64,000 nt of DNA from Alphaproteobacteria bacterium (GCA_026990035.1 JALSIM010000015.1:5132-69131); one strand, 5' to 3'; positions 10,025 through 48,012 are shown, counted from the first letter of the stretch. Notes: generated by a model from the sequence alone, not told the origin. Translations and numbers: made by a program.

Positions 10025-10034
10025 ACGGGAAAAC

Positions 10035-12785: not shown

Positions 12786-12814
12786 CCCCGGATCCGGAGA
12801 AAAGGCGAAGAAAT

Positions 12815-13693: not shown

Positions 13694-13709
13694 GGGAGGA
13701 ATCTCCCCC

Positions 13710-14636: not shown

Positions 14637-14706
14637 CGGACGACCCTCCGAAATCTCCCCCGGTCCCTTCCCCTAGCGCCGAACGTCGAGCGTTCCAAGC
14701 CTCCGA

Positions 14707-15450: not shown

Positions 15451-15503
15451 GCGACGGTCCCGTCAGATACGGTCGGCGATGCCGCGGATGCCGGGCCGCC
15501 GGA

Positions 15504-31618: not shown

Positions 31619-32759
31619 GGAGGACGCCGCCAGGAAGGCCGCGAGCCTCCGTCCCACCCGGCGAAGGTGCGGCGGAGGAAGGGGGGCGGTCGCGGAACAG
31701 GGCGACGAAGCGGCTCGCCACCTTTTCGGGCGTGAACTCCGCGGCGCGGGCCCGGGCGGCGGCGCCGAGACGTTCCCGTTCGGCCGGATCGGCGATCAGG
31801 CGGGCGAGGGTCCGGTGGAGCCCCTCGCTGTCCTCCGGACGCACCAGAACCCCGGCACGTTCCGCCAGCTCGCCACAGCCGTAGGCGTCGGTGGTGACGA
31901 CCGCGCAGCCCGCATTCATCGCCTCCAGCAGCACCATCGGAAAGTTTTCCACCAGCGACGGCAGCACGAAGATCGCCGCCTCGGCGTAGAGCTCGGCGAC
32001 TCTTTCGTGGGGCAGGAAACCCGTGAACCGCACCGGCAGACCTTCCGCCTGCCGCTCCAGGGCGGCGCGCGAAGGTCCGTCGCCGGCCACCACCAGTTCC
32101 CAGTCGGGCGGCAGGCTGCGCATCGCCTCGACCAGGAACTGCACGCCCTTGCGGGGCACCAGCCGCGACACCGCGAGGATCATGTTGCGCCGGCGTCGCC
32201 GAGGCAGTCGCTCGAAGGCGAAGGGGTTGGGGATCACGGTCACCGGAACGGGACAACGACGCCGGAGGAGGTCGGCGAGGAACCGCGAGGGGCTGGTGAC
32301 CCAGCTCGCCTCCCGCAGCACCCGGCGCCACAGCGGCATCAGCAGGCGGTGCATCAGTGCGAACCGGTCGGGATTGTATCCCGGCACATCCGAGCCGTGC
32401 GCGGTGACCGCGTAGGGAACGCCGAACCGTCGGCCGAGGCGACAGGCCACCCAGCCGGTGGGAACCACGAAATGGGCGTGGATCACATCGTAGTGGCGCT
32501 CGCGGAGAAGCCGCGCCGCGGTCCGGTAGGTCGGATACAGGAAGGTCGCCTGCTCGAGGGCGGTGCTGTAGTGGCGCATCCGCCGATAGCCGCCGGTTCG
32601 CAGAATGCGTACCCCGTCGTCCATCTCCATGGCCGGGAGACCGGACATGCCGGCGGTGACGACGTCCACCTCGTGGCCCAGTCCGACCAGGGCCCGCCCG
32701 AGGAACCGACAGACGGTCGCGGCACCTCCACCGATCGGCGGGTACTCGCAGGTCAGCAT
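31512..32759 (-). CDS. Family-4-type (GT-B) glycosyltransferase
   Basis: Contains [16 protein letters not shown] and an EX7E-like region ([15 protein letters not shown]). Its start shares one base with the upstream stop (TGATG). Confidence 0.8.
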
Positions 32760-34030
32760 CAGGAAGCGCACAGTTCCCCGGCCTCCTGCAATCGGTTTTC
32801 GACCACCTTGAACTTGCGCCCCGGGGGAGGATCCAGACTGTCCCGGAAAGCCACCCGGATGGTCGCCCCGGAACCGAGCAGGGCGGACAGTGCGCCCCGG
32901 ATCGCCTCTTCGAGACCCGATCCGGGGCCGGCCTCGGGTTCGACTTCGACCCGGAACCGGTCGAGGGCCTCCTGGACCACCCGGTAGCGGGCGATTCCGC
33001 CCACCTCTTCCAGCGCCAGGGTCACGGCGTAGGGCGAGAGGCTTTCTCCGTCCGGCAGCCGGATACAGTCGACGATGCGCCCCTCCACCCGGGCGATCGT
33101 GCCGAACCGGCAGCCGCAGGCGCAGGCGCCCCCACCGGCGGCGACCGCCAGATCGCCGGTGTCGTAGCGGACGAGCGGCATAACCTTCCGCCAGAGGGAG
33201 GTCACCACCAGACGCGCGCGGCCCGGGACCGGCGCCGGCAGGAGTTCGACGATCGTCGTATCCTCCGCGAGGTGATAGGGTCCGCCCGGCGCACACTGCC
33301 AGGCGAGCGGCCCGGTTTCGGTCATGCCGTAGATGTCCAGGACCGGGGCGTCGAACAGCGTTTCGATTCTCCTTCGGACGAGCGGATCGAGACTTTCGGC
33401 ACTGGTGTAGACCGCTTGCGGCCGGGGCGGTCTTCGACCGGTGCTCCGGTAATGATCCAGGAGCCGACGCAGCGGCGCGAGCAGGGCGTAGACGCAGTAC
33501 GGCCGGAAGCTCTCCAGAGCCTCGGCCATCCGCGCCGCGGGCACCTCGCTCGAGATGTAGCGCCAGCCGAGCCAGGCCGCCGGTGGTCGCTCACCGGCGT
33601 TGGTGATCAGCAGCAGCCGCCGGCCGGGACGATAGGGACCGGCACAGAGCGCCCGCAGGAAGGCGGCCCGTCGGACCACCCGGAACTCGGGCAACTCGTG
33701 GATCGTGAAGGGGCGGCCGCTGGAGCCGCTGGTGCGCAGGGTCCGGAGATCGGCCCTGCCGCGAAGGGCGGCGGAAAGCGCCTTCTCACCGGCGGCCCGC
33801 AGCTCGGTCTTGGTGACGATCGGCAGCCGCGCGAGATCGCCGACGGTGTGGATCTCCTCGGGAGAAACGCCGGCCGCATCCCAGCGTTCGCGGTAGAACG
33901 GCACGGTCTCGTAGGCATCCCGCAGGAGACGGTGCAGCAGCCGTTCGCGCAGCGCCGTCAGACGCGCCGCCGGCAGGCGCTGGTGGAGCCAGAGCCGGGC
34001 GAACGCGGCCGGAAGCGCCATCGGGTTCAT
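32759..34030 (-). CDS. Phenylacetate-CoA ligase / CapK / coenzyme F390 synthetase-like adenylate-forming enzyme
   Basis: Contains VPFYRERWDAAGVSPEEIHTVGDLARLPIVTKTEL and the TSGSSGRP AMP-binding motif. Confidence 0.8.
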   Translation of the reverse strand: MNPMALPAAFARLWLHQRLPAARLTALRERLLHRLLRDAYETVPFYRERWDAAGVSPEEIHTVGDLARLPIVTKTELRAAGEKALSAALRGRADLRTLRTSGSSGRPFTIHELPEFRVVRRAAFLRALCAGPYRPGRRLLLITNAGERPPAAWLGWRYISSEVPAARMAEALESFRPYCVYALLAPLRRLLDHYRSTGRRPPRPQAVYTSAESLDPLVRRRIETLFDAPVLDIYGMTETGPLAWQCAPGGPYHLAEDTTIVELLPAPVPGRARLVVTSLWRKVMPLVRYDTGDLAVAAGGGACACGCRFGTIARVEGRIVDCIRLPDGESLSPYAVTLALEEVGGIARYRVVQEALDRFRVEVEPEAGPGSGLEEAIRGALSALLGSGATIRVAFRDSLDPPPGRKFKVVENRLQEAGELCAS

Positions 34031-35196
34031 GCCGCCACCAGGAGCGTTCGGGTTCGCTCCAGGATCCGGCGCTGCAACGCGGCGAGCCGTTCGGGATCGG
34101 GTGCACCCTGCTCCCAGGCGGCGAACAGGCGTGCCAGCACGGGCTCCGGATCGAACTCCTCTTCCACCATCCGTCGAACGTCCAGTGTTCTTTCCGGGTG
34201 TCCGATCAGCTCGAAGAAGCCGGCGAATTTCGGGTTGTAGGCGAGACCGAAGGCGGGCGTACCGACGGTGGTGGCGAGGATCGCCGGATGCATCCGCCCG
34301 GCGAGGAGAAAATCCACCTCCCGGCAGAGGGCCGCGTAGAGCCGTGCGTCCGCCACCCCGAGATGGGCGTGCGGGACGCCGGGAATCCGGGCCGCGAGAT
34401 CACGGGCGAAAGCCACGTCTCCCTCGTGCGTGGCGCTGTAGGACGGCAGGAAGACGACGAAGGCATCGCGGGCGCGGGCGAGACGCCCGAGCAGCTCGGC
34501 GAAGCGGGCGGTGAACCGGGCACGCCCTTTTTCGTCCCGCCGCAGCGGCAGCCCCAGCGCCCAGGCCAGCTTGCGAGGGACGATGCGCCGGGCGGGCGGC
34601 CACCACGGGCGACAGGCGACCCCGATCAACGGGCGCCCGTCGACCGGCACGCCGGCCGCCGCGAGGAAGTCGCGCGCGCGGTCGCGCGCCGCCGGCACCA
34701 GCAGCAGCGCCGGATCGGGCAGGACTTCCGCCTTCCGCGAGGTCAGTCGTTCCACGAGCTCGGCCGCCGTTTCGTCCCGCACCGTGACGCATTCCATCGA
34801 TGCCAGCGCCAGACGCGCCGCGATGCGGCTGACGGAGGCATCGAGAGGTCCGACCCCCAACCCATAGCCCGCGACCCGACCGCCTCCAAGACGGGAAAGA
34901 AGGGTCAGCACACTCCAATAGGGCATCTTGACCAGGCTGTCGTCGTCCTGGAACAGGCCGCCCCCCCCGATGAGGACGAGATCGGCCCGCGACACGGCGG
35001 CCAGAAGGACGGGCAACGCCCGTGGCCCGCGCGGCAGAAGCCGCAGGTTCCGCCCGGCGACGGTATCCGGCCGGCGGGAAAGCAGGGTGATCTCGGCGGT
35101 GGGCAGAATGCAGTTGATGGCGGCGATGGTGGCACTCCGGATGGCCTGATCGCCGAGATTGCCGTCGGCGTCGCCGGCGAGAACGAGGATGCGCAT
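34027..35196 (-). CDS. Polysaccharide pyruvyl transferase-family protein
   Basis: Contains MRILVLAGDADGNLGDQAI and LIGGGGLFQDD. ATGA overlap with the CapK-like gene. Confidence 0.75.
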   Translation of the reverse strand: MRILVLAGDADGNLGDQAIRSATIAAINCILPTAEITLLSRRPDTVAGRNLRLLPRGPRALPVLLAAVSRADLVLIGGGGLFQDDDSLVKMPYWSVLTLLSRLGGGRVAGYGLGVGPLDASVSRIAARLALASMECVTVRDETAAELVERLTSRKAEVLPDPALLLVPAARDRARDFLAAAGVPVDGRPLIGVACRPWWPPARRIVPRKLAWALGLPLRRDEKGRARFTARFAELLGRLARARDAFVVFLPSYSATHEGDVAFARDLAARIPGVPHAHLGVADARLYAALCREVDFLLAGRMHPAILATTVGTPAFGLAYNPKFAGFFELIGHPERTLDVRRMVEEEFDPEPVLARLFAAWEQGAPDPERLAALQRRILERTRTLLVAA

Positions 35197-35309
35197 CCGG
35201 GGGAGCCTCGCGAAGTTCGATCGTTGACCGTTGCCCTGCGGAATCCTTAGCATTGTCGAGCCCGGGTCGTTAAACTTTCGCTAATCCAGATACGGACCAC
35301 ACCTTCGCG

Positions 35310-36320
35310 ATGGCACGGACAGCGAAGCACCGCCGGCCCGGCTCCGCCCGGCCGCCGGCCGCGACGGGCCGCTCGACCGCTTCCGGGTCGGGAAAGGCGC
35401 CGCTGTGGACGGCCCAGGATACGCGTACCGCGTTGCGCCTGCCGTTCACCCTCGCGATGGCCGTCCTGCTGCCCGAGAACCGCCGCCACGATCTTCTCCG
35501 ACGGCTGGTGGCGATCAAGGTGGCGCGACGCCCCCTTTCGGTGCGCCTCGCCGAACGGCTGCTGGTGCCGGTTTTCACGGTCCGGAGGACGATCGGAGAT
35601 CGGACCCGTTTTCTCACCGATCTCCTGTTCGAGAACGAGCTGGCCCGGCTCGCCCTCTTCCTCCGCTATCGGCGACGGGCTCCCGAACCCGACATTCGTG
35701 TCGAGGGTGGGGAAGCGGTCGCGGCCGCGCTCGCCGCCGGTCGCGGTGCGATCCTCTGGGTGGCGCCGATGGCCCACGCCTCCCTCGTCGCGAAAATGGC
35801 CTGGCACCGCCGAGGATGGATGGTCTCCCATCTCAGCCGCTACAGCCACGGCTCGAGCTCGAGCCGCCTCGGTGCGCGGTTGCTCAACCCCTTCGTCTGT
35901 CGGGTGGAGGACCGCTACCTCGCCGAGCGTGTACGAATGCGGCGTGACGAACCGGCGGCGGTGGCGGTGCGCGTCCTCCGGCGTCGCCTGCGCGAAAACC
36001 GGCTCGTCTCCATCACGGCCCTCCCCGGCCAGGGCGAGAATGCCCGGCCATCCTTCCTCGGCGCGCGGATCCGCCTCAGTCTCGGACCACCGCGGCTGGC
36101 GGCCGGCGTGAACGCGGCCCTCCTTCCCGTGTTCTGCTGGCGCGAAGACACCGACCGCTTCGTCGTCAGGATCGACCCGCCGCTGTCCTTGGATGCCGGT
36201 CCCGAGACCGCCACCGAAGCCTTCGCTCGGGCGTTCGGCGCCCTGCTCGAACGTTTCCCGACGCAGATCGCCTGGCCCACGGCGGTCGGGCTGTTCGGCG
36301 AGGCGGACGAGGTTCCGTGA
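35310..36320 (+). CDS. LpxL/HtrB-like (lipid A acyltransferase fold) protein, paralogue A
   Basis: The pattern GRGAILWV ... SRYSHG ... LRENRLVSITALPGQG ... GPPRLAAGVNAALLPVF parallels the E. coli LpxL blocks GKGVMVVG / YRPHNN / WFAPDQD / GTYVLSRL. It is a clear paralogue of 37717-38748. Confidence 0.5.
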   Translation: MARTAKHRRPGSARPPAATGRSTASGSGKAPLWTAQDTRTALRLPFTLAMAVLLPENRRHDLLRRLVAIKVARRPLSVRLAERLLVPVFTVRRTIGDRTRFLTDLLFENELARLALFLRYRRRAPEPDIRVEGGEAVAAALAAGRGAILWVAPMAHASLVAKMAWHRRGWMVSHLSRYSHGSSSSRLGARLLNPFVCRVEDRYLAERVRMRRDEPAAVAVRVLRRRLRENRLVSITALPGQGENARPSFLGARIRLSLGPPRLAAGVNAALLPVFCWREDTDRFVVRIDPPLSLDAGPETATEAFARAFGALLERFPTQIAWPTAVGLFGEADEVP

Positions 36321-37645
36321 TCGCGGGCCTCGCGAGCTGGCGCCCGTCCCGCCTGCTGCGGGACGCGAGCTGGATTTCGGTGGCGCTGATGGCACCCGAA
36401 ACGGTGCGCGGCCTCGTCTTCCTCGCCCTCGCCCCGCTCCTCGGTCCGGAGGCCTACGGTCTCATGGGGCTGGCCGCCATGGTGATCGCCGTCGCCACGC
36501 TGCTCCTCCGCGACGGCTGGGTCACCGCCCTCCTCGCCCGATCGGAGCTCCCGGACCCGCTGCTGTCGAGCTGCTTCCGAGCTCTGGCCATGTTCGCGGT
36601 GGCGCTGATACCGGCGATCCTCGGCGGCGGCTGGCTGCTGGGCCACATCTTCACCGAACCGCTGCTGCCCGTCATCGTGGCGGCTCTGGTGCCGGCCGTG
36701 CTCGCGGAAACGGTGGCGGTGCCGGCGCGAGCCTGGCTCCTGCACCACCGGCGTTCCCGCGACGTCGCGCTGGCCAGCACGATCGCCGCGATGTTCGCCG
36801 GTATCAGCGCCGGGGGCGGCGCTCTGGCGGGTTGGGGTGTCTGGTCGCTGGTCGTGTTCAACCTGTCGCTCTCCGTCTCCACCTCCTCGCTGCTGTACCT
36901 GCGGAGCGGCTGGAAACCGGGGCGGCGGTTCGCCTCGGGCGGCATACGCCCGGTGCTCGCCGCCGCCGCCGGGATCGGCGCCGGCAACGCCGTCCTCCTG
37001 CTCGAGCAGATCGTGCTGCGCAGTTTCGTCGCCGCGGTGTTCGGCACGGCCGGGCTGGGTGCGCTGATGCTGATGCGACGGGTCGTCGATCTGATCGCCG
37101 GTGCGACCTCGATGGCGCTCGGCCGGGCGAGCCTGATCGGCATCGCCCGTTACCCCGCAGGCAGCAGCGACCGGCGAAGAACCCTGGTGCAGGCGCTGAG
37201 CCTCGGCCTTTTGCTGGCGGTACCACCCGCGCTGCTGCTGGCCGTGGCCGGCGAGGCGGCGGTTGTTTGGCTCGCCGGTCCCGAATGGACGGACAGCGGT
37301 CCCCTCCTCGAAGCCGGCGCACTTCTGGTCCTCGCCCTGCCGCTGAACGCCGTCCTGGCCCAATGGCACTACGGCCATCACCGTACCGGGCTCGAACTGG
37401 GACTCCGGATTCTCGGCAGTCTCCTGCTGCTGGCCCTCCTGCCGCTCGTCCTCGTCGGCGGGCTGACCGGCGTGGTCCTGGCGATGGCCGGCCGATCCTG
37501 GATTCTGCTGTTTTGCCGATTGCTCCTCGTGTACGGGACCGGGGGGCTGCCCGGCATCCTCCAGCGGACCCGACGGGCGCCGGCGGTCATCTCCGGGTAC
37601 CGCCGGAAGCGGACGGGCCGTCGCTGCACCCCGCCGCAGGGTTGA
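36317..37645 (+). CDS. Polysaccharide/oligosaccharide flippase (MOP/Wzx-like)
   Basis: 442 aa with about 12-14 hydrophobic segments. GTGA overlap with paralogue A. Confidence 0.7.
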   Translation: MIAGLASWRPSRLLRDASWISVALMAPETVRGLVFLALAPLLGPEAYGLMGLAAMVIAVATLLLRDGWVTALLARSELPDPLLSSCFRALAMFAVALIPAILGGGWLLGHIFTEPLLPVIVAALVPAVLAETVAVPARAWLLHHRRSRDVALASTIAAMFAGISAGGGALAGWGVWSLVVFNLSLSVSTSSLLYLRSGWKPGRRFASGGIRPVLAAAAGIGAGNAVLLLEQIVLRSFVAAVFGTAGLGALMLMRRVVDLIAGATSMALGRASLIGIARYPAGSSDRRRTLVQALSLGLLLAVPPALLLAVAGEAAVVWLAGPEWTDSGPLLEAGALLVLALPLNAVLAQWHYGHHRTGLELGLRILGSLLLLALLPLVLVGGLTGVVLAMAGRSWILLFCRLLLVYGTGGLPGILQRTRRAPAVISGYRRKRTGRRCTPPQG

Positions 37646-37716
37646 CCGGCTCCCGAAGGTTCCCCTAACCGAAAGTTCAGAACTCGGATTCCCCCACCTC
37701 CGAGGAGCGGACACCG

Positions 37717-38748
37717 ATGGTCTTCGGCATATCGCTGCCGACGGCAGCGACCCCGTATTGCTCGGCCGCGGCCCGGCCGGAGCAACGCTGGGTGAGTGCG
37801 GAGGATTTCACCACCGCGGCGCGGATGACGGTCGGTCTCGGTCTGCTGGCCCTGCCTTTCGCCTTGCGCGAGCGGCTGCTCGCTTTTGTCGCCCGGCGCC
37901 GAACCCGGTCGAAGGCGGGACCGCGGTTCCGCAGCGTGGCCCGGATGACGGCTCTACTCGCCGGCGAGACGGCGAGGGATCCCCGGACCCTCCTCTTCCA
38001 ATGGCATAGACATCATCTGGCGTACGAGCTCCTGGTGCTGCGGACGGCGTTGGGCGGGAAGCCGGATTTTCCCTATCTGTTGCGCGGAAGCGAGCATCTG
38101 CACGCGGCGCTCGCCCGGGGGCGGGGCGTCGTTTTCTGGGGAATGCCGTTCCTGTACGTGCCCCTCGTTCCCGCCATCGTCCTCTACCGCGAAGGCCTGG
38201 CTTCGGTGGCGCTGTCGCGATGGACGCACGGCTATGCGAGAACGCGCCTGGGTGCCGCTCTGCTCAATCCGATCCGCGTCCGGGCCGAGAACCGGTTCCT
38301 CCTCGACCGCGTGGTGATCGGCCGGAATTGCTCGCCGCTTCCCGCATTGCGCCGCCTGCTCGACGAACTGCGGCACAATCGTCCGGTGTCCATCCTCCTC
38401 GCACCTCTCGCCGAGCGCCTCCTGGACGTCCCCTTCGCCGGCGGCCGGCTGCGCGTCCCCTCGGGTCCCCTGCGTCTGGCTGCCCGGGCCCGCTGTCCGG
38501 TGCTTCCCGTCTGTTGCTGGTGGGAGGACGGGCGCTTCGTCGTCGAGATCGACGAGCCGCTGCCGGCTCTCGCCGACGGCGATCGCGGAACGCAGGCGGC
38601 GGCCGAACTCGCACGACGTCTTGAGATCCGGGTGCGGCGCGTTCCCGATCAGTTCCACTGGCCGAACCCCAGCTTCGTGCCGCCGCACCTCGCGGTGGCG
38701 GCGACCGGCCGAACGCAAGGAAGAGGAGGGCCGCAGCCCTCCTCTTAG
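37717..38748 (+). CDS. LpxL/HtrB-like protein, paralogue B
   Basis: The blocks GRGVVFWG ... SRWTHG ... LRHNRPVSILLAPLAE ... GPLRLAARARCPVLPV are collinear with paralogue A. Confidence 0.5.
   Translation: MVFGISLPTAATPYCSAAARPEQRWVSAEDFTTAARMTVGLGLLALPFALRERLLAFVARRRTRSKAGPRFRSVARMTALLAGETARDPRTLLFQWHRHHLAYELLVLRTALGGKPDFPYLLRGSEHLHAALARGRGVVFWGMPFLYVPLVPAIVLYREGLASVALSRWTHGYARTRLGAALLNPIRVRAENRFLLDRVVIGRNCSPLPALRRLLDELRHNRPVSILLAPLAERLLDVPFAGGRLRVPSGPLRLAARARCPVLPVCCWWEDGRFVVEIDEPLPALADGDRGTQAAAELARRLEIRVRRVPDQFHWPNPSFVPPHLAVAATGRTQGRGGPQPSS
38721..38746. terminator. Hairpin between convergent genes
   Basis: AAGAGGAGGGC-CGCA-GCCCTCCTCTT, an 11-bp perfect stem that overlaps the last codons of paralogue B. 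There is no clear U-tract. Confidence 0.4.
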
Positions 38749-38772: not shown

Positions 38773-39927
38773 TCAGCTTTCGGGCCGCCAGATTTCTTCG
38801 ACCTTGTACTGGCCCTTCTTCACGCTGATGATCGACACGGGCTTCGGCGGCACCATGCTGGGCCGGGTGTAGGAGATTTCCCCCGTGACCCCCTTGAAGC
38901 CCCGTGTGGCGGCGAGCGCGTCCCGGATCGCCTTCGGATCTGCCGCACCGGCACGCTCGATGGCATCGGCCACCAGCCGCAGCGCGTCGTAGCCGAGGGC
39001 GGCGAAAGCGTTCTCCGGATCACGCCCGTATTCCTTGCGATAGGCCTCGATGAAGGCGATGACTTCCGGGCGATCGTCGGCGCGGTAGGTGTGGGTGGAG
39101 AAATAGACCTCGTCGGCGAGATCCGGGCCGGGCGTCGTCACCACCAGTTCGGTGTCGAAGCCGTCCCCGGAAACGATCGTCACCTCCAGCCCCGCCTCGC
39201 GGATCTGCTTCACCGTCAGCCCCGCCTCGGTCGGAATGGCGGAGATGAACACCGCGTCGGGAGCCGGATCGACCGCCTTGAGGCGGGCGATCTGGGCCGA
39301 GAAATCGGTGTCGCCCATCATGAAGTAATCCTCGGCGACGATCTCGCCGCCGCGCTCGACGAAGCGCTGCTTGAAGAACTTCGAGAGCGCCTTGGTGAAG
39401 TCCATCGAATTGTCGGTCCAGACCACGACCCGCCGCGCCCCGAGCCTGTCGTAGGCGTAGTCGGCGATGGCGAAGGACTGGTCGTCGTCACCGAAGGGAG
39501 TCATGAACATGTAGTCGCCGACCCACTGCGGCAGCATCGGATGGGTGGCGCCGGAGGTGACGAACGGAACGCCGGCTTCCTGGAACAGCGGCGCCGCGGC
39601 CATCACGAAGGTGGTGTCGGAAAAACCGATCGCCGCCACCACCCCCTCGCTCAGCAGACGCTGGGCCGCCTTGGCCGTCTCCTGCTGGTCCGTCTTGGTG
39701 TCGATCGCCAGCAGTTCGATCGGCCGACCGTCGAGCAGGCCGCCGGCCTCGTTGATCTCCTTGGCGGCGAGCTTGGCGCCGTTCAGGGACGGCCCGTCGA
39801 TCGAGGCCATGCCCCCGGTGACACCGTAAAGCGCGCCGATCTTGATCGGTTCGGCCGCGTCGAGCGATCCGCCCGCCACCAGCGCGAACGCCAGGGCTGC
39901 AGCTCCAGTCACGAATTTGCCAGGCAT
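38773..39927 (-). CDS. ABC transporter periplasmic substrate-binding protein (branched-chain amino acid / amide type)
   Basis: Has a signal peptide (MPGKFVTGAAALAFALVAGGS) and IKIGALYGVTGGMAS, typical of the LivJ-like family. Confidence 0.85.
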   Translation of the reverse strand: MPGKFVTGAAALAFALVAGGSLDAAEPIKIGALYGVTGGMASIDGPSLNGAKLAAKEINEAGGLLDGRPIELLAIDTKTDQQETAKAAQRLLSEGVVAAIGFSDTTFVMAAAPLFQEAGVPFVTSGATHPMLPQWVGDYMFMTPFGDDDQSFAIADYAYDRLGARRVVVWTDNSMDFTKALSKFFKQRFVERGGEIVAEDYFMMGDTDFSAQIARLKAVDPAPDAVFISAIPTEAGLTVKQIREAGLEVTIVSGDGFDTELVVTTPGPDLADEVYFSTHTYRADDRPEVIAFIEAYRKEYGRDPENAFAALGYDALRLVADAIERAGAADPKAIRDALAATRGFKGVTGEISYTRPSMVPPKPVSIISVKKGQYKVEEIWRPES

Positions 39928-40013
39928 CGGGCTCTCCCTGTCTCGAGGCCGTGCCTCGAGGGCACTGTCGTTCTCGGTCCGGTAGCCGCATTCAAGCCGA
40001 GGCCGCCCATCAC

Positions 40014-40043
40014 GTCAACCAAATCGAACACACTCGGGTTGAC
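40014..40043. promoter_or_regulatory. Inverted repeat GTCAACC-N16-GGTTGAC in the divergent SBP/rpiR promoter; candidate operator
   Basis: Read directly from the sequence. It lies in the only AT-richer stretch between the two divergent genes. Confidence 0.3.
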
Positions 40044-40099
40044 CGGGCGAAAATGTATCATTTAGTTCAGAGCTCGCCGACCGGCCGAGGGGACGGATT

Positions 40100-40981
40100 T
40101 TGACCCGGACGACACTGGCCGAACGCATTCGGTCGCGGTTACCGGAGCTGACCAAGGCGGAACGCCGGGTGGCGCACGTGCTCCTCGGTCGCTATCCGCT
40201 GGCCGGCCTTGAGACGGTGCAGGCGCTGGCCAGGCGTGCCGGCGTGAGCACCGCGAGCGTGCTGCGCTTCACCGGCAAGCTCGGCTTCGCCTCCTACACC
40301 GCGTTCCAGAGCGAGCTGCGCGAACAGCTCGCCGCCACCCTCCAATCGCCTCTCACCCGCTACCGCGACGGCGACGCCGAACCGGCGGTGGGCAACGCCG
40401 GGTTCGTCCACCGCCATCTGGCCGAGATCCGCGCCGCGCTCGCGGAAGCGGAATCGCTGGTCGTGGAAAGCGAGATCGAGGCCGCCGTCGCCCTTCTCGC
40501 GGATACCCGCCGCCCGGTGTATCTGCTCGGCGGTCGCTACAGCGGCAGGATCGCCGGCTACATGGCCGATCTCCTGCGGGGGGTGCGACCGCACATCGTC
40601 CATATCGACGGGCAGACCCAGAAATGGGCCGATCATCTGCTCGACGTCGACCGGCGGACCGTCCTCGTCTGCTTCGATTTCCGTCGCTATCAGCCCGATG
40701 TGCTGAGCTTCGCCGAACATGCGGCGAAACGGGGCGCACGGATCCTGCTGATCACCGATCCCTGGCATTCGGCGATCGAACGGGTGGCGGCCCACGTTCT
40801 CCCGGTTCCGGTGGCCGCTCCCTCCATCTACGACAGTCTGGCCCCGGCGCTGGCGCTGGTGGAGGGCCTGGTCGGCGCGCTCGCCCGCCGCCTCGGCGAT
40901 CGTGCGCGCAGCCGGATCGAAGCTCAGGAGGAGCTGCGCGTGCCCTTCCGCTCGGTACCCGCCGAGCCCGACCAACGATGA
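40100..40981 (+). CDS. MurR/RpiR-family transcriptional regulator (HTH_6 + SIS domain)
   Basis: Contains LTKAERRVAHVLLGRYPLAGLETVQALARRAGVSTASVLRF, followed by a SIS-like domain. Confidence 0.85.
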   Translation: MTRTTLAERIRSRLPELTKAERRVAHVLLGRYPLAGLETVQALARRAGVSTASVLRFTGKLGFASYTAFQSELREQLAATLQSPLTRYRDGDAEPAVGNAGFVHRHLAEIRAALAEAESLVVESEIEAAVALLADTRRPVYLLGGRYSGRIAGYMADLLRGVRPHIVHIDGQTQKWADHLLDVDRRTVLVCFDFRRYQPDVLSFAEHAAKRGARILLITDPWHSAIERVAAHVLPVPVAAPSIYDSLAPALALVEGLVGALARRLGDRARSRIEAQEELRVPFRSVPAEPDQR

Positions 40982-41005
40982 GCGAACGATCGGGGAGATC
41001 GAGCC

Positions 41006-42310
41006 GTGCGACGTGAAGAACTGATCATGATCTGTACGAGCGACATCGCCGGCCAGCTACGGGGAAAGGCGGTTCCCGTACGCGACTTCGAAAAGCGGCG
41101 CACCGTCGGCGTCGGCTGGACACCGACCAACATCATGATCACCGCCCACGGGCCGATAGCCCCCTCACCCTGGGGCTCGCGGGAGGATCTCTACCTGCGC
41201 CCGGTGCCGGCCACCGCCGTCCGCCTCGCGGTCGATTCCGAGGGGCCGGTGCAGCATTTCGTCCTTTCCGACATCATGCAACTCGACGGCACGCCCTGGA
41301 CGTGCTGCCTGCGCGATTTTCTCAAGCGCGGTCTCGCCGCGCTCGAGGCCGAGGGTCTCCGGCTGGTGGCCGCCTTCGAGCACGAGTTCGCGCTCCGGGG
41401 CGTCGAGGAGCGACCCAACAGCCCCTACAATTTCGATGCTTTCCGCCGCCAGGGGCTGTTCGCCGAGGTCTTCACCGCGGCGATGCGCGAGGCCGGCCTC
41501 GAGCCCGACACCTTCATGCCGGAGTACGGGCCGAGTCAGTACGAGGTGACGATGCGCCACGCCCCGGCGCTGACCGCCGCCGACCGCGCCGTCGTGCTGC
41601 GGGAGGTGGCGCGCGGGGTCGCCCATCGGCTCGGTCTCGAGGCGACCTTCACGCCGCTGCTCCGTCCCGATGCGGTGGGCAACGGCGTGCACCTCCATTT
41701 CAGCCTCACCGAGGGCTCCGGGCGACCGGTCAACCACGACCCGGACGGGCCCGGCGGGCTGTCGCCGGTCGCCGGCGCCTTCCTCGAGGGGGTGCGACGC
41801 AAGCTGCCCTCCCTCTGTGCACTGACGGCCGCCTCCACGGTCAGCTATCTGCGACTCGTGCCCCACCGCTGGAGCGCTTCCTATACCAACGTCGGCGTGC
41901 GGGACCGGGAAGCGGCGTTGCGCATCTGTCCGGTCTTCCGGCCGGGGAGCGAGGAAACGGCCCTGCATTTCGAGTACCGGGCGGCGGATGCGGCGGCCAG
42001 CCCCTATCTCGTGCTCGGCGCCATCGTCTGGGCGGGCCTCTGGGGTGTGCGCCAGAAGCTCGGGCCGCCGCCGCTGACCACCGCCGATCCCGAGCAGATG
42101 GACGAACGGGAGCGGGCCGCCCTCGATCTGCGTCGGCTGCCCGGCTCGCTCGCGGATACGCTCTCGGAACTCGAGGCCGATGCCGATCTGAAGGCGGCCA
42201 TGGGCGAGACCCTGCACCGCGTCTATCTCGCCCACAAGCGGTTCGAGGAGGAACTGATGGCGCCCCTCGACCCGGCCGAGCAATGCGCGCGCTATCTCCT
42301 CGCCTACTGA
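41006..42310 (+). CDS. Glutamine synthetase-family (gamma-glutamyl ligase-like) protein
   Basis: Contains FEHEFAL, PEYGPSQYEVT and GNGVHLHFSL, which are catalytic-domain motifs of the GS family. Confidence 0.85.
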   Translation: MRREELIMICTSDIAGQLRGKAVPVRDFEKRRTVGVGWTPTNIMITAHGPIAPSPWGSREDLYLRPVPATAVRLAVDSEGPVQHFVLSDIMQLDGTPWTCCLRDFLKRGLAALEAEGLRLVAAFEHEFALRGVEERPNSPYNFDAFRRQGLFAEVFTAAMREAGLEPDTFMPEYGPSQYEVTMRHAPALTAADRAVVLREVARGVAHRLGLEATFTPLLRPDAVGNGVHLHFSLTEGSGRPVNHDPDGPGGLSPVAGAFLEGVRRKLPSLCALTAASTVSYLRLVPHRWSASYTNVGVRDREAALRICPVFRPGSEETALHFEYRAADAAASPYLVLGAIVWAGLWGVRQKLGPPPLTTADPEQMDERERAALDLRRLPGSLADTLSELEADADLKAAMGETLHRVYLAHKRFEEELMAPLDPAEQCARYLLAY

Positions 42311-42429
42311 CGACGGCGGCGGATCGCCCGAAGCCATAGCGCGATACCGGCAAAGCCCGTCGCAGGTGGTTTCCGTCACCTTCCCGGGTTAGTCTCCCGT
42401 CGTTCAGCGCGCATACGGGAGCCGCCGAC

Positions 42430-42561
42430 ATGATCTCGATCGCCCACACCCGGGGGCGGTTCGCACCGCATCCGGTTCCTCTCTCGGAGCGGTCGCTCGA
42501 GGGTGTGGCTCACCTGCGGTCACGGAATGCGCAGCCCCCTGTCCGGGCCTGCGCCGCATGA
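42430..42561 (+). CDS. Speculative 43-codon ORF translationally coupled to the Mur-ligase-like gene
   Basis: Encodes MISIAHTRGRFAPHPVPLSERSLEGVAHLRSRNAQPPVRACAA. GGGAG lies 8 nt upstream of the ATG. The TGA overlaps the downstream ATG (ATGA). GC3 is about 76%, lower than the neighbouring genes. Confidence 0.25.
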   Translation: MISIAHTRGRFAPHPVPLSERSLEGVAHLRSRNAQPPVRACAA

Positions 42562-43817
42562 CGGCCCCCGCGCCGACACCCGCGGCGTCGCCGGTATCGC
42601 CGTCCGGGCGCCGCATCCGGCGCTTTCTCCTGCAACGCTGCTGGCCTCTCGTCGGCGCCACCGCCCGTCTCTACCGGCAGACCCTGGCGGCACGCAAGCC
42701 GGTGGTCGTGGTCGTCGGCTCGTTCGGGAAGACCACGACGACGGCGGCGGTGAACGCCGTTCTCGGACTTCCGGGAGCATACCGGGGCAACGCGTTCGCC
42801 GGTCCCGCCATGGACCTTCTCGCGAGCCTGCCCGGACGAACGCCACTGGTGCTCGAGGTGGGTATCGGCGGCAAGGGACAGATGCTCCGCCATGCCCGCG
42901 CGCTGCGCCCGGACATGGTGGTGTTCACCTCGGTCGGCAGCGAGCACGGACGCAGCCTCGGCAGCCTCGAGGAGATCCGCGACGAAAAGGCCCGGATCTT
43001 CTCGGGCATGGACGCAGGGGGAACCGCGTTGCTCAACGGCGACGATCGGCTCGTGCGCAGTCTCGCCGAACGGGTCCCGGGGCGGGTCGTGACCTACGGC
43101 TTCGCGGAGCCCAACGATGTGCGGATCCTCGCGTACAGGCTCGATTGGCCGCACGGCACGGTGCTGGAGGTGGATTGCTTCGGCGAGCGGCTCGAAGTGC
43201 GAACCCGCCTGTTCGGCCGGGTCGCGGCCTATCCCGCCATCGCGGCTCTGGCCGTTGCCCATCTCCTCGGTGGCGACCCTGCCGAGACGCTCCGGGCCCT
43301 CGCGAGCCTCCCTCCGCGCCCCGGCCGTCTGCGGCTCCTGCGCCTGCCGCAGGGGGGCTGGCTGCTCGATGACACCTACAAGAGCAATCTGGAGACCATC
43401 GAGGCGGCCCTCGACCTGCTCGAGGAGATCCCGGCACGCCGGCTGGTGGTCATGGGCGAGATCCACGAGCCCCCCGGCAGCGCCGGCCCCCACTATCGGG
43501 CCCTCGGCGCGCGCCTCGCGCGGATCGCCGAACATGTCGTCACCCTCGGGTCACGCAAGAGCGGTGCGAGCTTTCGTTCCGGCGCGCGCCGGGCCGGGCT
43601 CTCGCCCGACATCTTCGTCCATGCGGGCAGGGAGTGGAAAAAGGCGGCCGAACTCCTCGCCGACCGGCTGCGGCCGGGGGACGTGGTCCTGGTCAAGGGA
43701 CGGTATACGCAGCGCCTGATGCGCCTGTCCCTGTCGCTTTCGGGCCGCCCCGTGCGGTGCGTGCTGACCGACTGCAACCTGCCGGTGCCCGGCTGTCATC
43801 TCTGCCCGCGGCTCTAG
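42558..43817 (+). CDS. Mur-ligase-family protein, MurF-like core without the N-terminal substrate domain
   Basis: The P-loop VVVVGSFGKTTTT sits near residue 55. DDTYKSNLETIEAALDLL, VMGEIHE and LVKGRYTQ resemble MurF blocks. The C-terminus carries CVLTDCNLPVPGCHLC. Confidence 0.75.
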   Translation: MTAPAPTPAASPVSPSGRRIRRFLLQRCWPLVGATARLYRQTLAARKPVVVVVGSFGKTTTTAAVNAVLGLPGAYRGNAFAGPAMDLLASLPGRTPLVLEVGIGGKGQMLRHARALRPDMVVFTSVGSEHGRSLGSLEEIRDEKARIFSGMDAGGTALLNGDDRLVRSLAERVPGRVVTYGFAEPNDVRILAYRLDWPHGTVLEVDCFGERLEVRTRLFGRVAAYPAIAALAVAHLLGGDPAETLRALASLPPRPGRLRLLRLPQGGWLLDDTYKSNLETIEAALDLLEEIPARRLVVMGEIHEPPGSAGPHYRALGARLARIAEHVVTLGSRKSGASFRSGARRAGLSPDIFVHAGREWKKAAELLADRLRPGDVVLVKGRYTQRLMRLSLSLSGRPVRCVLTDCNLPVPGCHLCPRL

Positions 43818-44446
43818 CCCTCGAGTTCGGCCAGCAGGGCGGCGGTGGTCGTCAGGCGACAGTAGCCGCGGAAGGCGGCGAGGGCCGCGCGATGACGCTC
43901 CCGGGTGTCGGTGGCGCAGGCATCCTCGACGCAGATCATGTAGTAACCGCGGTCGGCACCATCGCGCACCGTGTGATCGACGCACTGATCGGTGAGAAAG
44001 CCGGTGGCGATGATCGTCTCGATGCCGATGTTGCGCATCAGATAGTCGAAATTGGTGGAGTTGAAGAGCGAGGAGGAGGTTTTCGGCAGCAGGATCTCGT
44101 CCTCGCCGGGGGCGAGCTCCTCGATCACCCGGGCGTCCCGTGAGCCCTTGGCGATGAAGAAGCCGGAGAGCTTGTAGTCGAGCGACCGGTCGCGACCGTC
44201 GCGGGTGAGATTCTCCATCACCGTGTAGACGATCTCCAGACCGTGACGCCGGCCGGCGGCGAGCAGCCGTACGAGATTGGGCACAACGATCCGCGCCGCA
44301 TCCTCGTAGAACTCGGGCCGCGGCGGATGTTTGGAAGGATCGAGCACCCAGTTCTGGACGTCGATGATCAGCAGCGCCGTCCGCCGGGGATCGATCGCGC
44401 GCTGCCGCGTCAGGCGGGCATCTTCCGGTCGTGGTCCGCCGCTCAT
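43814..44446 (-). CDS. Isochorismatase-family cysteine hydrolase, copy 1
   Basis: Contains LLIIDVQN, PKTSSS and TDQCV (the Asp-Lys-Cys triad context). ATGA overlap with the upstream permease gene. Confidence 0.85.
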   Translation of the reverse strand: MSGGPRPEDARLTRQRAIDPRRTALLIIDVQNWVLDPSKHPPRPEFYEDAARIVVPNLVRLLAAGRRHGLEIVYTVMENLTRDGRDRSLDYKLSGFFIAKGSRDARVIEELAPGEDEILLPKTSSSLFNSTNFDYLMRNIGIETIIATGFLTDQCVDHTVRDGADRGYYMICVEDACATDTRERHRAALAAFRGYCRLTTTAALLAELEG

Positions 44447-45453
44447 CGGCCGACTCCCGGCACGCGCACCGGCCGGAAAGCGGCGGGTTCGCGGCTGCCG
44501 AACAGCCCGGTGGGACGCAGGCGCAGCACCAGAATGAGACCGAGGGCCACCAGCACCTGGCTCAGCCCGTAGAGCTCCAGCCCCTCCTCGAGCGGTCGCG
44601 CGAACTCGGCCAGCAGGCTGATGGCGACCGCCGCCAGCGCGGCACCGGTGATGCTGCCGCTGCCGCCCACGACCACCATCACCACGAGACTGAAGGCGAG
44701 CGGAATACCGTAGGCGCCCGGGGTGATGACCGAAACCAGATGGACCGTCAGCGCCCCCGCCGCGCCGGCGAGGAAGGCTCCGAGAACGAAGGCGAGGAGC
44801 TTGAGGGCGAAAGCGTCGATGCCCATGCAGCGGGCGGCGAGTTCGTTCTCCCGCATGGCCATCATCGCCCGCCCGAGGGAGGCGTGCTTGATCCGCCAGA
44901 CGAGGCCGACGGTGAGCAGGGTGAAGATCAGCACTTCCCAGGGTCCGGTCAGTCGGGGCACGCCCGAAAGGCCGAGCCCGCCCCGGGTGTAGCCGTCGAG
45001 ATTGTTGATCACCACCCGCACGATGACGATCAGCCCGAGCGTCGCCACCGCGAGATAGTGCCCCTTGAGCCGCAGTACCGCGACCCCGACGATCACCGCG
45101 AGAAGGGCGGCGACGGTCGCCCCCGCCAGGGTCGCCGGGATCAGGTCCCACTGCGCCGTCGCCAGCCATCCCGGCAGGTCGGGCATCATGAACCCCTTGC
45201 GGCGGACGGGATATGTCAGGATGGCGGCGACGTAGCCGCCCACCGTCATGAAGGCCGGATGGCCGAGGGAGAACAGCCCCGTGAGCCCGTTGGTGAGCTG
45301 CAGGCTCACCGCCAGGGCCACGTTCAGCAGAACGAGGCTCAGGAGGGTGACGGCATAGGCGCTGAGATGGAGATCGGCGAAGGCGACGACGGCCACCGCC
45401 GCGACCACGAGCAGGGCGGCTCTCGGCCCCGGCAAGAACGGCAGGGTGCTCAT
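44443..45453 (-). CDS. Branched-chain-amino-acid-type ABC permease (LivM-like)
   Basis: Contains LTNGLTGLFSLGHPAFMTVGGY. Polytopic. ATGA overlap with the LivH-like gene. Confidence 0.85.
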   Translation of the reverse strand: MSTLPFLPGPRAALLVVAAVAVVAFADLHLSAYAVTLLSLVLLNVALAVSLQLTNGLTGLFSLGHPAFMTVGGYVAAILTYPVRRKGFMMPDLPGWLATAQWDLIPATLAGATVAALLAVIVGVAVLRLKGHYLAVATLGLIVIVRVVINNLDGYTRGGLGLSGVPRLTGPWEVLIFTLLTVGLVWRIKHASLGRAMMAMRENELAARCMGIDAFALKLLAFVLGAFLAGAAGALTVHLVSVITPGAYGIPLAFSLVVMVVVGGSGSITGAALAAVAISLLAEFARPLEEGLELYGLSQVLVALGLILVLRLRPTGLFGSREPAAFRPVRVPGVGR

Positions 45454-46339
45454 GCGCGATCCTCCTCCGGCCGGCCGAGGAGGCCGTTGGGCATCAGCAG
45501 CAGGACGAGGATCAGGGTGGCGAAGACGAAGGCGTCGCGGTACCCGGAATAGACGGGCGGCAGCATGCCCACGAACATCACCTCGGCGAGGCCGAGCAGA
45601 TAGCCGCCCAGGACCGCCCCGCCGATCGAGCCCACACCGCCGATGACACAGGCGACGAAGGCCTTGAGACCGGGAGCGAAGCCGATCAGCGGGTCGATCT
45701 GGCCGAAGCGGCCGCCCCAGAGCAGCCCGGCGAAGGCGGCGAAGGCGCTGCCGATGGCGAAGGCGGCCATGATCGTGCGATCGACGTCGATCCCCATCAG
45801 CCGGGCCGCCAGCAGATTGTCGGCGAGGGCCCGCATCGCGCGGCCGAGGCGGGTGCCGCGCACGAACAGCAGGAGCAGCACGCAGAGCAGAAGGGTGCTG
45901 CCGATGATCACGAGATCGACCGCGGCCACGCTCGCCGGACCGACGGTCACCCGGCTGCGCATGATCTCCGGAAAGAGAAAGGTGCGCGGCTGGCCGGAAA
46001 GCAGGATCAGCCCGCCGTTCTCGATCACCACCGAGACGGCGAGGGTGGCGATGAAGCCGGTGACCTGGGGGGCGCCCCGCATCGGCCGGATCGCCACCCT
46101 TTCGATGGCGATCCCCGAAAGCGCGCCGGTGATCAGGACCAGGAAGGCGATCGCCCACCAGGGCACGAGACCGGTGGCCGCGAGACCGAGGGTGGTGAAG
46201 GCCCCGACCATCAGGAGATCGCCGTGGGCGAAGTTGATCAGCCGGACGATCCCGTAGATCATCGAAAAGCCGATCGCGATCAGGGCATAGAGGCTGCCCA
46301 GCATGAGACCGTTGAGGAGCTGCTGGAGAAAGTAGGCGC

Positions 46340-46343
<4 letters not shown>
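45450..46343 (-). CDS. Branched-chain-amino-acid-type ABC permease (LivH-like)
   Basis: Contains MSAYFLQQLLNGLMLGSLYALIAIGFSMIYG. Confidence 0.9.
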
Positions 46344-47048
<705 letters not shown>

Positions 47049-47065
<17 letters not shown>

Positions 47066-47858
47066 GCTCCGCCCCCCTGCGATTGCCGAGATAGGCGGCG
47101 ATCACCGCCGGATCGTTCTGGATTTCCTCGGGTCGCCCTTCGGCCAGCAGACGACCGCCCTCGAGAACCTGGATGCGCCGGCAGACACCCATCACGAGGC
47201 GCATGTCGTGTTCGACCACCAGCAGCGCGATGCCGAGTTCGCCGTGCAGCCGGCGCAGGAGATCGGCCAGCGCGTCGGTCTCGCTCGGGTTCATGCCGGC
47301 GGCGGGCTCGTCGAGCAGGAGGACGCGGGGCTCGGTGGCCACGGCCCGGGCGATCTCGACCAGACGCTGCTGGCCGTAGGCGAGATCGGAGGCCCGGGTA
47401 TCGGCCAGCCCGCCGAGACCGACGAACTCCAGCGCCGCCCGCGCCCGTTCCGCGATCCGCGTTTCCCTGCGGCGAAGCGAAGGCAGGGCCAGGGCGGTGG
47501 CCAGCAGCCCCGCGCCGTGACGCGCATGGAGCCCCGCCATGACGTTGTCGAGCACCGAAAGATCGCCGAACAGGCGCACGTTCTGGAAGGTGCGGGCGAT
47601 GCCGAGGCGGGCGATCCTGTGGGTCGGCCAGCCGGTCACCTCGCGACCGGCGAAGCGGATGACGCCGGCGCTCGGCCGCAGGACACCGCTCAGCAGGTTG
47701 AAGGCCGTGGTCTTGCCGGCCCCGTTGGGGCCGATCAATCCGAGGAGATCCCCTTCGCGCAGATCGAGGGTGTAATCCTGGAGCGCGACGACACCGCCGA
47801 AGCGTCGGGAAAGCTCCCGCGCCTCCAGAATCGTTCGCCCCTCGGTGGTGCCGATCAT
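47049..47858 (-). CDS. ABC transporter ATP-binding protein (LivG-like)
   Basis: Contains GPNGAGKTT, LAYGQQRLVEIAR and LLLDEPAAG. Confidence 0.9.
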
Positions 47859-48012
47859 CGTTCCCCCCTCCGGCCGGCCGGTCCGGACGACCGGCGCCGA
47901 GCCTAGCGACCGGTCGCGAGGCTTTCAATCGTTTGGTACAGTTTGCTTTGACGAGCTCATTTCTGGACGATATGGAACAGCACGCGAAAGATCCGGGCCG
48001 GACCGTGATGGC

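Follow-up and report, generated by a model that had tools for sequence, protein, structure and literature searches.

Besides MurF, three kinds of described enzyme stand closest to the locus analysed here. MurT, a Mur ligase that consists of two domains and has no domain 1, possesses a Cys4 zinc element and an amidotransferase partner, and its substrate is not linked to UDP (PMC6113224); PA5508, a gamma-glutamyl-amine ligase, is described as favouring bulky amines (Ladner 2012, cited in PMC6478659). Surface-polysaccharide loci hold further amidoligases, namely PF14397 ATP-grasp proteins, CapK/PaaK-like enzymes and the XrtA/PEP-CTERM-type AsnB (TIGR03108). The window (the whole stretch of 64,000 nucleotides of alphaproteobacterial DNA that was analysed) contains genes for an RpiR-family regulator, a glutamine-synthetase (GS)-like ligase and a Mur-type ligase, all on the + strand and at the positions that a first-pass annotation had given them (Table 1). 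The call of an RpiR/MurR-type regulator was confirmed by Pfam, which detected an HTH_6 DNA-binding domain (PF01418, E = 4.9e-15) and a SIS sugar-phosphate-binding domain (PF01380, E = 2.6e-15); no equivalog profile scored above its cut-off for this protein. The surface-polysaccharide mini-cluster in the window encodes a GT4 glycosyltransferase, a CapK/PaaK-like adenylating enzyme, a CsaB-like pyruvyl transferase, two LpxL-type acyltransferases and a Wzx-type flippase; its glycosyltransferase and CapK-like genes lie 4-11 kb upstream of the Mur gene, with three cassette genes standing between the Mur gene and the polysaccharide genes.

Table 1. Positions of the features of the window discussed in the text
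Feature	Coordinates	Strand	Basis and remarks
Surface-polysaccharide mini-cluster	31512..38748		Pfam, NCBIfam
Liv-type periplasmic substrate-binding protein (SBP), cassette member	38773..39927	-	Peripla_BP_6 (Pfam)
RpiR-family regulator	40100..40981	+	HTH_6 + SIS (Pfam); catabolic cassette member, outside any Mur system
GS-like gamma-glutamyl-amine ligase, PA5508 type	41006..42310	+	Gln-synt_N_2 + Gln-synt_C (Pfam), 4hpp match
Relic ORF, 43 codons	42430..42561	+	tblastn, DNA alignment, translation
Mur-type ligase, 419 aa	42558..43817	+	Mur_ligase_M + Mur_ligase_C (Pfam)
P-loop GSFGKTT, residues 54-60	42717..42737	+	alignment A1
Cys4 motif C401-x4-C406-x6-C413-x2-C416, putative zinc knuckle	43758..43805	+	alignment A1
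Isochorismatase-family hydrolase + LivM, LivH, LivF, LivG ABC importer	43814..47858	-	Pfam
First isochorismatase-family hydrolase	43814-44446	-	Pfam
FGase-family amidohydrolase	48013-48801	+	Pfam
Second isochorismatase-family hydrolase	48798-49463	+	Pfam

The Mur-type ligase consists of a basic N-terminal helical hairpin, a Mur central domain (Mur_ligase_M, PF08245, residues 52-234, E = 2.7e-22), a Mur C-terminal domain (Mur_ligase_C, PF02875, residues 256-382, E = 4e-13) and a Cys4 tail, and Pfam found no N-terminal Mur domain corresponding to the UDP-binding domain 1. Fifty-three residues precede the P-loop, which begins at residue 54 (nucleotide 42717); an earlier start is excluded because of an in-frame stop (TAG, 42390-42392), after which the next ATG, GTG or TTG in the Mur frame is that at 42558. 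The first-pass annotation had reported this stop and the absence of ATG or GTG before 42558 (TTG is likewise absent), a P-loop about 55 residues from the start, a protein lacking domain 1 and the MurF-like blocks DDTYKSNLETIEAALDLL and LVKGRYTQ, and all of these were found, the short N-terminus proving to be a family-wide architecture and not a truncation. It had also described the C-terminal tail CVLTDCNLPVPGCHLC as C-x5-C-x6-C-x2-C; the four cysteines (C401, C406, C413 and C416) are present, but the first spacing is x4.

The profile and structure searches that had been proposed for this protein placed it nearest to MurF and below the MurF cut-off. The murF profile TIGR01143 (NCBIfam) was matched over positions 62-410 of 418 and gave 151 bits, where the cut-off is 288.6; the other Mur equivalog profiles stayed far under their cut-offs and Mpl gave no match. 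The best solved sequence relative is E. coli MurF (1gg4, E = 1.3e-22), and a Foldseek search with an AF2 model (pLDDT 92, pTM 0.91) returned MurF on top (4qf5, TM 0.77). By profile, the protein falls outside FolC (25.7 bits, cut-off 162.65), cyanophycin synthetase (30 bits versus 850) and CapB/PgsB (no PgsB model matched). In alignment A1, which comprises 30 family members with the window protein as the first row, G54, S55, G57 and K58 of the P-loop are invariant, as are E100, H130, K144, N160, D162, D163, R257 and D272, and the ATP/Mg site is intact in the family members. The P-loop, the Mg-binding Glu and His and a lysine are shared with MurF: K144 aligns with a conserved lysine in the AKAKGEIFSG segment of E. 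coli MurF (1gg4), which we take to be MurF's carbamylated lysine. Unlike MurF, however, the Mur-type ligase lacks the UDP-binding domain, carries the additional basic hairpin and Cys4 tail, has D-x-x-K-S-x-x-E-T in place of the DDSYNANP block and is encoded outside any cell-division/cell-wall (dcw) cluster. The absence of the N-terminal domain and the presence of a Cys4 element recall MurT, whose zinc ribbon lies within the central domain, whereas the Cys4 motif here (residues 401-416) lies past the C-terminal domain; moreover, the MurT structure 6h5e matched weakly (Foldseek rank 30, TM 0.47).

These features define a family of 521 representatives (clusters at 50% identity, E <= 1e-30), with named members of alignment A1 spanning several phyla. 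Its hallmarks are a short basic N-terminus that bears W-P and R motifs, the pair of Mur domains and, at the C-terminus, C-x4-C-x5-7-C-x2-C, all of which the window protein displays together with every invariant residue of the alignment. The four cysteines are invariant in 30/30 aligned members, and the Cys4 motif and short N-terminus occur together in every family locus, whereas bona fide MurF matches have at least 104 residues ahead of the P-loop and no Cys4. The Cys4 region is modelled as coil (pLDDT about 70) and forms a putative zinc knuckle, for which metal binding is presumed. Family proteins have net charges of +9 to +31, with a mean of +9 in the N-terminal 40 residues. Comparison of the window gene with three orthologues gave dN/dS values of 0.22-0.33, by which measure it is under selection. 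Taken together, the family represents widespread, apparently uncharacterised MurF-related two-domain ligases.

The GS-like gene belongs to a nine-gene catabolic cassette with the order SBP / RpiR-GS / isochorismatase-LivMHFG / FGase. The first-pass assignment of its product to the gamma-glutamyl-amine kind of GS-like ligase holds: it has the Gln-synt_N_2 and Gln-synt_C architecture of PA5508 and matches that protein (PDB 4hpp), its nearest solved relative, over the full length (E = 3.6e-98), although a score of 251 bits against the cut-off of 650 for NCBIfam GGputSyn shows that it is no PuuA equivalog. All nine orthologues recur in the same order in L090, a metagenome-assembled genome (MAG), and L092 (Kaustia mangrovi), in both of which the FGase gene stands at the matching position and a Mur-like gene is absent from the cassette. 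The convergent GS/isochorismatase pair is kept in L091, and SBP / RpiR-GS in L173 and L174; next after the GS gene in L090, L091 and L092 comes the isochorismatase orthologue, and RpiR orthologues occupy the matching position in L090, L092, L173 and L174. Identity to the window proteins is 71% for the L090 GS and 79-86% for the outgroup cassette SBPs. We take the cassette to serve the uptake and catabolism of some amine or amide, in which the GS-like enzyme would probably gamma-glutamylate the amine brought in by the importer. The earlier view that importer and hydrolases fit the locus is upheld for the GS-like gene, with which their order is kept in L090 and L092, but not for the Mur gene.

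The clade of the window comprises four fully syntenic genomes (the window and L007-L009), and both the GS-like and Mur genes are kept in all of them. Outside this clade, genes for GS, RpiR, isochorismatase and FGase are absent from within 10 kb of the Mur gene in all 41 Mur-family loci, and none of the five outgroup GS loci (L090, L091, L092, L173 and L174) has a Mur-like gene. Because the cassette recurs without the Mur gene and Mur loci elsewhere lack the cassette genes, the Mur gene is a lineage-specific insertion, placed where the GS-like and isochorismatase genes converge. The 247-bp gap between the GS-like and Mur genes is filled by the 43-codon relic, which retains a Shine-Dalgarno GGGAG and whose stop overlaps the Mur start (ATGA). 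L008 still has both tandem copies; residues 1-22 of the first, P0019, matched the relic by tblastn (64% identity, E = 5e-5), and the gap DNA aligns with L008 from the GS stop into the Mur1 start. On this evidence the relic is the 5' part left over from a Mur-like paralogue that once stood in tandem and was lost, and the Mur gene arrived as a tandem pair of which one copy decayed. Furthermore, within-clade identities are 72-74% for the Mur gene, 58-91% for the adjacent polysaccharide genes and 86-98% for the cassette genes; the Mur gene diverges at a rate resembling that of its polysaccharide neighbours and faster than the cassette.

The neighbourhoods of the family were compared across the 41 independent loci outside the window's clade, about half of all family loci lying on short contigs or having no informative neighbour. 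The commonest direct neighbour is an AsnB-type amidotransferase (11/41 loci, directly adjacent in 10/41), and in L005 the AsnB-like and Mur genes overlap by 4 bases. Genes for CapK-like enzymes (8), methyltransferases (6), GT2 (5), GNAT (5), GT4 (4), priming sugar transferases (3) and epimerases/dehydratases (3) follow, with further ones for pyruvyl transferases, ATP-grasp and FemAB-like proteins. BLAST clustering groups the CapK-like gene of the window with those that neighbour the Mur gene at 8 other family loci; genes for AsnB, a priming transferase, FemAB and Pth are absent from the 64-kb window. Family members are fused to peptidyl-tRNA hydrolase (Pth, PF01195), methyltransferase, ATP-grasp or a second Mur unit, and Pth fusions are found in P0269, P0335, P0375, P0307 and P0339 and at loci L082, L126, L136 and L158. 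The two Pth-fused members with informative flanks have a Wzx flippase and GT4 (L082) and ATPgrasp_ST and AsnB (L158) nearby. Against a glycan-linked substrate, the Pth fusions give a hint of one that is linked to tRNA.

These neighbourhoods point to surface glycans, and the genes with which the Mur gene of the window probably works are those of the mini-cluster; the assignment of its substrate draws solely on neighbourhoods and fusions. The three cassette genes that part it from the polysaccharide genes, and the lack of AsnB, priming transferase, FemAB and Pth genes in the window, speak against this reading. We lean, with moderate confidence, towards two unrelated units placed side by side, an amine/amide cassette and an inserted Mur-like ligase tied to surface glycans. 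The latter most likely forms amide bonds in an ATP-dependent manner and thereby decorates a surface-glycan intermediate: it would form an acyl phosphate from a carboxylate, as other Mur ligases do, and couple it to an amine, the substrate being an intermediate held without UDP, whether lipid-linked, polymeric or tRNA-linked, and it would act alongside AsnB-type amidotransferases, CapK-like adenylating enzymes and glycosyltransferases. The amidoligases of polysaccharide loci share the neighbourhoods of the Mur family and the same presumed job, amide bonds on surface glycans, but they are ATP-grasp or adenylate-forming enzymes of other folds and chemistry, whereas the Mur family would be an acyl-phosphate ligase.

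The first-pass annotation had instead joined the GS-like and Mur-like proteins in one RpiR-controlled two-ligase pathway for the synthesis or salvage of a small molecule of gamma-glutamyl or peptidyl type, which importer and hydrolases would take up and break down. The adjacency of the two genes on one strand, its retention in 4/4 clade genomes and the lack of a predicted terminator between them speak for this pathway, which is nevertheless very improbable: the co-occurrence survey that the annotation had itself proposed as a check confines the pairing to the window's own clade (0/41 and 0/5, two of the five outgroup loci having the complete cassette), evolution is much faster in the Mur gene than in the cassette, and the four co-occurring genomes count as one event because they are close relatives with complete synteny, so that the dedicated system is already largely refuted by that check. 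Given that the search for + strand terminators and promoters found none between the two genes, the RpiR-controlled GS transcript may read through into the Mur gene, which may have acquired a role locally. That the Mur gene is a functionless, 5'-truncated MurF/Mpl pseudogene is scarcely credible and already refuted by the conservation data, even though MurF is its nearest relative by profile and fold and a gene relic lies directly upstream; its architecture is kept over 521 representative clusters, its catalytic residues are all intact, its dN/dS is low (0.22-0.33), and the relic belongs to a separate paralogue and is no missing domain 1.

Two further readings concern the chemistry. If the Mur-type ligase activated a carboxylate to which an AsnB-type partner supplied ammonia, the product would be an amidated glycan or peptide, comparable to that of GatD/MurT on lipid II; the MurT-like loss of domain 1, the Cys4 element and the frequent AsnB neighbours fit this scheme. 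We regard it as improbable, since AsnB enzymes have their own ATP-dependent synthetase domain (Pfam Asn_synthase) and therefore need no ligase partner; in addition, the usual neighbour of the family is of AsnB type whereas the MurT partner is of GatD type, no GatD/CobQ-type glutaminase gene occurs in the window or among the family neighbours, the Cys4 motif lies at the C-terminus, structural similarity to MurT is low and the window has no amidotransferase. Unlikely too, though deserving somewhat more credit, is an amine provided by the alpha-amino group of an aminoacyl-tRNA or of a growing N-extended peptidyl-tRNA, which tandem ligases would extend before Pth-like release or FemAB-like transfer to a glycan or lipid. 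In the fusions Pth may precede or follow the Mur part, and Mur-Mur-Pth is found as well; L122 has a tandem array of at least four Mur-Pth genes, the fused Pth domains retain N10, H20 and D93, FemAB-like genes neighbour the family in L040 and L059, the proteins are very basic and have a Cys4 knuckle, as RNA binders would, and the UDP-binding domain is lost. On the other hand, Pth fusions are limited to about 3% of the top 150 representatives, neither the window protein nor the window carries Pth, the fused domains have lost N114, so that their substrate may not be canonical peptidyl-tRNA, and a biochemical precedent for tRNA as the substrate of a Mur ligase was not found.

Beyond the glycan-decorating ligase that we favour, the family as a whole might, as a bolder and rather doubtful proposition, form a new Mur branch that builds short peptides or N-acyl-amino acids on a tRNA- or ester-linked carrier, tandem or fused units adding residues stepwise and Pth-like or FemAB-like partners releasing the product or transferring it onto surface glycans. 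If this were true, such enzymes would constitute a ribosome- and NRPS-independent peptide assembly line that decorates exopolysaccharides, and the gene in the window would be the lone surviving unit of such a line.

The three plus-strand genes claimed for this locus, which lies in sequence of ~70% G+C, were borne out by ORF listing and translation. The Mur-like protein carries only the two Mur domains in Pfam, its P-loop begins at residue 54, and the NCBIfam murF profile was matched from position 62 of 418 only (151 bits; cut-off 288.6), in agreement with the proposed absence of the N-terminal domain. A domain hidden by an earlier start or a frameshift was rejected on reading all three frames upstream, where nothing but a match to residues 1-22 of a separate paralogue turned up; furthermore, the reported in-frame TAG was confirmed, with no start codon between it and 42558. 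The cysteine tail, CVLTDCNLPVPGCHLC, is present with a spacing of C-x4-C-x6-C-x2-C, the x5 of the first-pass annotation being wrong; its other sequence observations hold.

Coordinates of features in the window and in the compared loci
Sequence	Feature	Coordinates	Strand	Content
Window	Polysaccharide genes	31512-38748		GT4, CapK-like, pyruvyl transferase, two acyltransferases, Wzx-type flippase
Window	GS-like cassette	38773-49463		Nine genes
Window	RpiR	40100-40981	+	Pfam HTH_6 + SIS
Window	GS-like	41006-42310	+	Pfam Gln-synt_N_2 + Gln-synt_C
Window	In-frame TAG	42390-42392		
Window	Relic ORF	42430-42561		43 codons
Window	Mur-like ligase	42558-43817	+	Pfam Mur_ligase_M + Mur_ligase_C
Window	Mur-like/isochorismatase 3' overlap	43814-43817		4 bases, convergent
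Window	TctA-family transporter gene	~50426-51628		
L090	GS-like cassette	6777-15334		
L092 (Kaustia mangrovi)	GS-like cassette	6728-15463		
L005 (betaproteobacterial contig)	Bufferin-type RiPP set	12072-13251		BufA1 precursor, MbnB/TglH family enzyme, HvfC
L082 (cultured Microvirga calopogonii CCBAU 65841)	Pth-fused Mur-like gene	7555-9510		
L122	Mur-Pth genes in tandem	397-6266		At least four genes
L158	Pth-fused Mur-like gene	1251-3017		

A protein search returned hundreds of relatives of 400-470 aa (42-52% identity), all with the two Mur domains only, and when 1.84 billion representatives were scanned exhaustively with HMMER, the family came to 521 clusters at 50% identity (E <= 1e-30). The named members span several phyla, some being assigned by source name to Geminicoccaceae, Gaiellaceae, Thermoanaerobaculaceae, Casimicrobiaceae and Deltaproteobacteria. 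Across an alignment of 30 members, the P-loop, E100, H130, K144, N160, D162, D163, R257, D272 and all four tail cysteines are invariant, and W29, P30 and R40 of the N-terminal segment are conserved; K144 lies opposite a conserved lysine in E. coli MurF, the carbamylated lysine of that enzyme. Neither the Cys4 tail nor the short N-terminus was found without the other in the fetched loci, and true MurF matches have at least 104 residues ahead of the P-loop and no Cys4. The AlphaFold model (pLDDT 92, pTM 0.91) comprises two N-terminal helices, both Mur domains and the Cys4 tail as a coil at lower confidence; its best structural match is MurF (TM 0.77), followed by MurC and MurE, with MurT at rank 30. 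The dN/dS values against orthologues in the clade (0.22-0.33) show that the gene is under purifying selection. Net charge in the family ranges from +9 to +31 (+21 for the window protein), with about +9 within the 40 residues ahead of the P-loop; such basicity is unusual in a cytoplasmic enzyme, and fits binding to a polyanion, be it an acidic glycan, a membrane surface or RNA.

The architecture is thus that of a distinct functional family and not a truncation: in this branch the UDP-binding domain has been replaced by a basic hairpin and an invariant Cys4 tail has been gained. Judged by its sequence, the protein is predicted to work as a Mur ligase. It falls outside MurF, MurC-E and Mpl (no domain 1, scores below cut-off) and likewise outside FolC, PgsB and cyanophycin synthetase; nor is it a MurT, which carries its Cys4 elsewhere (PMC6113224) and whose partner GatD does not accompany the Mur-like gene. 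The protein is most aptly classed as a Mur-superfamily member of new architecture. Literature searches found no characterised member of the family and no paper on it, the MurT structure paper being the sole relevant match.

The first-pass annotation had joined the GS-like and Mur-like genes into a possible two-ligase amide-bond system, a reading that the comparative data oblige us to drop. Three relatives (L007, L008 and L009; 72-74% Mur identity) are fully syntenic with the window, and the four genomes were therefore counted as one evolutionary event. Genome and metagenome scans supplied 41 independent Mur-family loci outside this clade. Within 10 kb of these, tblastn (E < 1e-10) found no gene for a GS-like, RpiR, isochorismatase or FGase protein. 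Conversely, GS cassettes occur elsewhere without the Mur gene: L090 (GS 71% identical) and L092 (60%) hold all nine cassette orthologues in the order and orientation of the window (SBP, RpiR-GS, isochorismatase-LivM-LivH-LivF-LivG, FGase), a third locus (L091) keeps the convergent GS/isochorismatase pair, and two more (L173, L174) keep SBP and RpiR-GS, all with no Mur gene. The Mur gene therefore occupies the exact spot where GS and isochorismatase normally abut, and is an orphan insertion.

Part of the history of this insertion can be read from L008, in which GS is followed by two tandem Mur-like genes overlapping by 4 bases, P0019 first and the window gene's orthologue second. The 247-bp gap in the window can be aligned with the L008 sequence that runs from the GS stop into the start of P0019, and the ORF within the gap, whose first 22 residues match P0019 (64% identity, E 5e-5), is what remains of the 5' end of a lost tandem paralogue; this first copy is decayed in L007 and absent in L009. 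Because the relic retains a Shine-Dalgarno GGGAG and ends in a stop that overlaps the Mur start codon (ATGA), it may now be a coupling leader that preserves translational coupling. A scan of 42200-43950 found no promoter and no plus-strand terminator, and the 3' overlap with the convergent isochorismatase gene leaves no space for a terminator between the two. Around the Mur gene there were short chance repeats only, with no insertion scars or signs of mobile elements. Tandem Mur pairs recur (L008, L011, L098); an ancient split into first and second genes, which would point to a pathway of two fixed steps, was rejected since within L011 and within L098 each partner has the other as its best match, so that the duplications are independent.

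The neighbours of the family within the 41 loci were clustered and then annotated. An AsnB-type amidotransferase was present in 11 loci and directly adjacent in 10, overlapping the Mur-like gene by 4 bases in L005; the best model for these neighbours was TIGR03108 (XrtA/PEP-CTERM amidotransferase), with scores below cut-off. CapK/PaaK-like adenylating enzymes (8 loci), methyltransferases (6), GT2 and GNAT proteins (5 each), GT4 (4), priming sugar transferases and epimerase/dehydratases (3 each) were also found, as were pyruvyl transferase, ATP-grasp and FemAB-like genes. The window has its own polysaccharide genes, and its CapK-like gene clusters with the CapK-like neighbours of other members; a search of the window for AsnB, priming transferase, ATP-grasp, FemAB, methyltransferase, GNAT, GT2 and peptidyl-tRNA hydrolase (Pth) found none. 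Within the clade, Mur divergence (again 72-74% identity) resembles that of the polysaccharide genes (58-91%), the cassette genes being 86-98% identical. For many bacterial surface polysaccharides we know of no enzyme that attaches their amino acids or peptides, and the steady association with AsnB-type enzymes, adenylating enzymes and glycosyltransferases makes the Mur family a concrete candidate for joining these to the glycan. In L005, a bufferin-type set is encoded 3-4 kb downstream of the Mur-like and AsnB genes, to which it is probably unrelated.

Domain fusions, taken as long matches within the representative scan, raise a second possibility. Mur-like proteins are fused to Pth at either end (P0269, P0335, P0375), as Mur-Mur-Pth (P0307, P0339), to a methyltransferase (P0262, P0303), to ATP-grasp (P0275) and to each other (P0351), and Pth-fused members also occur in L082, L126, L136 and L158, with Mur-Pth genes in tandem in L122. 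That of L082 lies amid Wzx flippase and GT4 genes, that of L158 amid a sugar-transfer-associated ATP-grasp and AsnB, and P0269, on a 2.6-kb contig, has an ANL-type adenylating enzyme upstream. Judged against the E. coli Pth sequence, the five fused Pth domains retain N10 and the catalytic H20 and D93, and have Arg, Pro or Leu in place of N114, a change that suggests an altered substrate. The Pth fusions, taken with the basicity of the proteins and their Cys4 knuckle, make a tRNA-linked or ester-linked substrate possible; the literature searched offered no precedent for a tRNA-linked one among Mur ligases.

The GS-like cassette stands apart from the Mur family and occurs in Kaustia mangrovi and several alphaproteobacterial MAGs. 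The closest solved relative of the GS-like protein is PA5508 (4HPP; E 3.6e-98), described as a gamma-glutamyl ligase preferring bulky amines (Ladner et al. 2012, as cited in PMC6478659). The cassette combines the GS-like enzyme with a Liv-type importer, two isochorismatase-family hydrolases and an FGase-family amidohydrolase; its most likely role is the uptake of an amine or amide and its breakdown via gamma-glutamylation. No paper on the cassette was found in the literature. In L091, the GS-like/isochorismatase pair adjoins hydantoinase A/B and an M20 peptidase. Beyond the cassette, the TctA-family gene looks truncated or disrupted, being called as 213 aa in L001 and as 389 aa in L002, an almost identical assembly, with neither TctB nor TctC called beside it; it may be a pseudogene, or the two assemblies may differ at this point.

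The nine-gene cassette is a second uncharacterised unit besides the Mur family, which, revealed by the window gene, is a sizeable unstudied branch of the Mur superfamily and deserves experimental attention.
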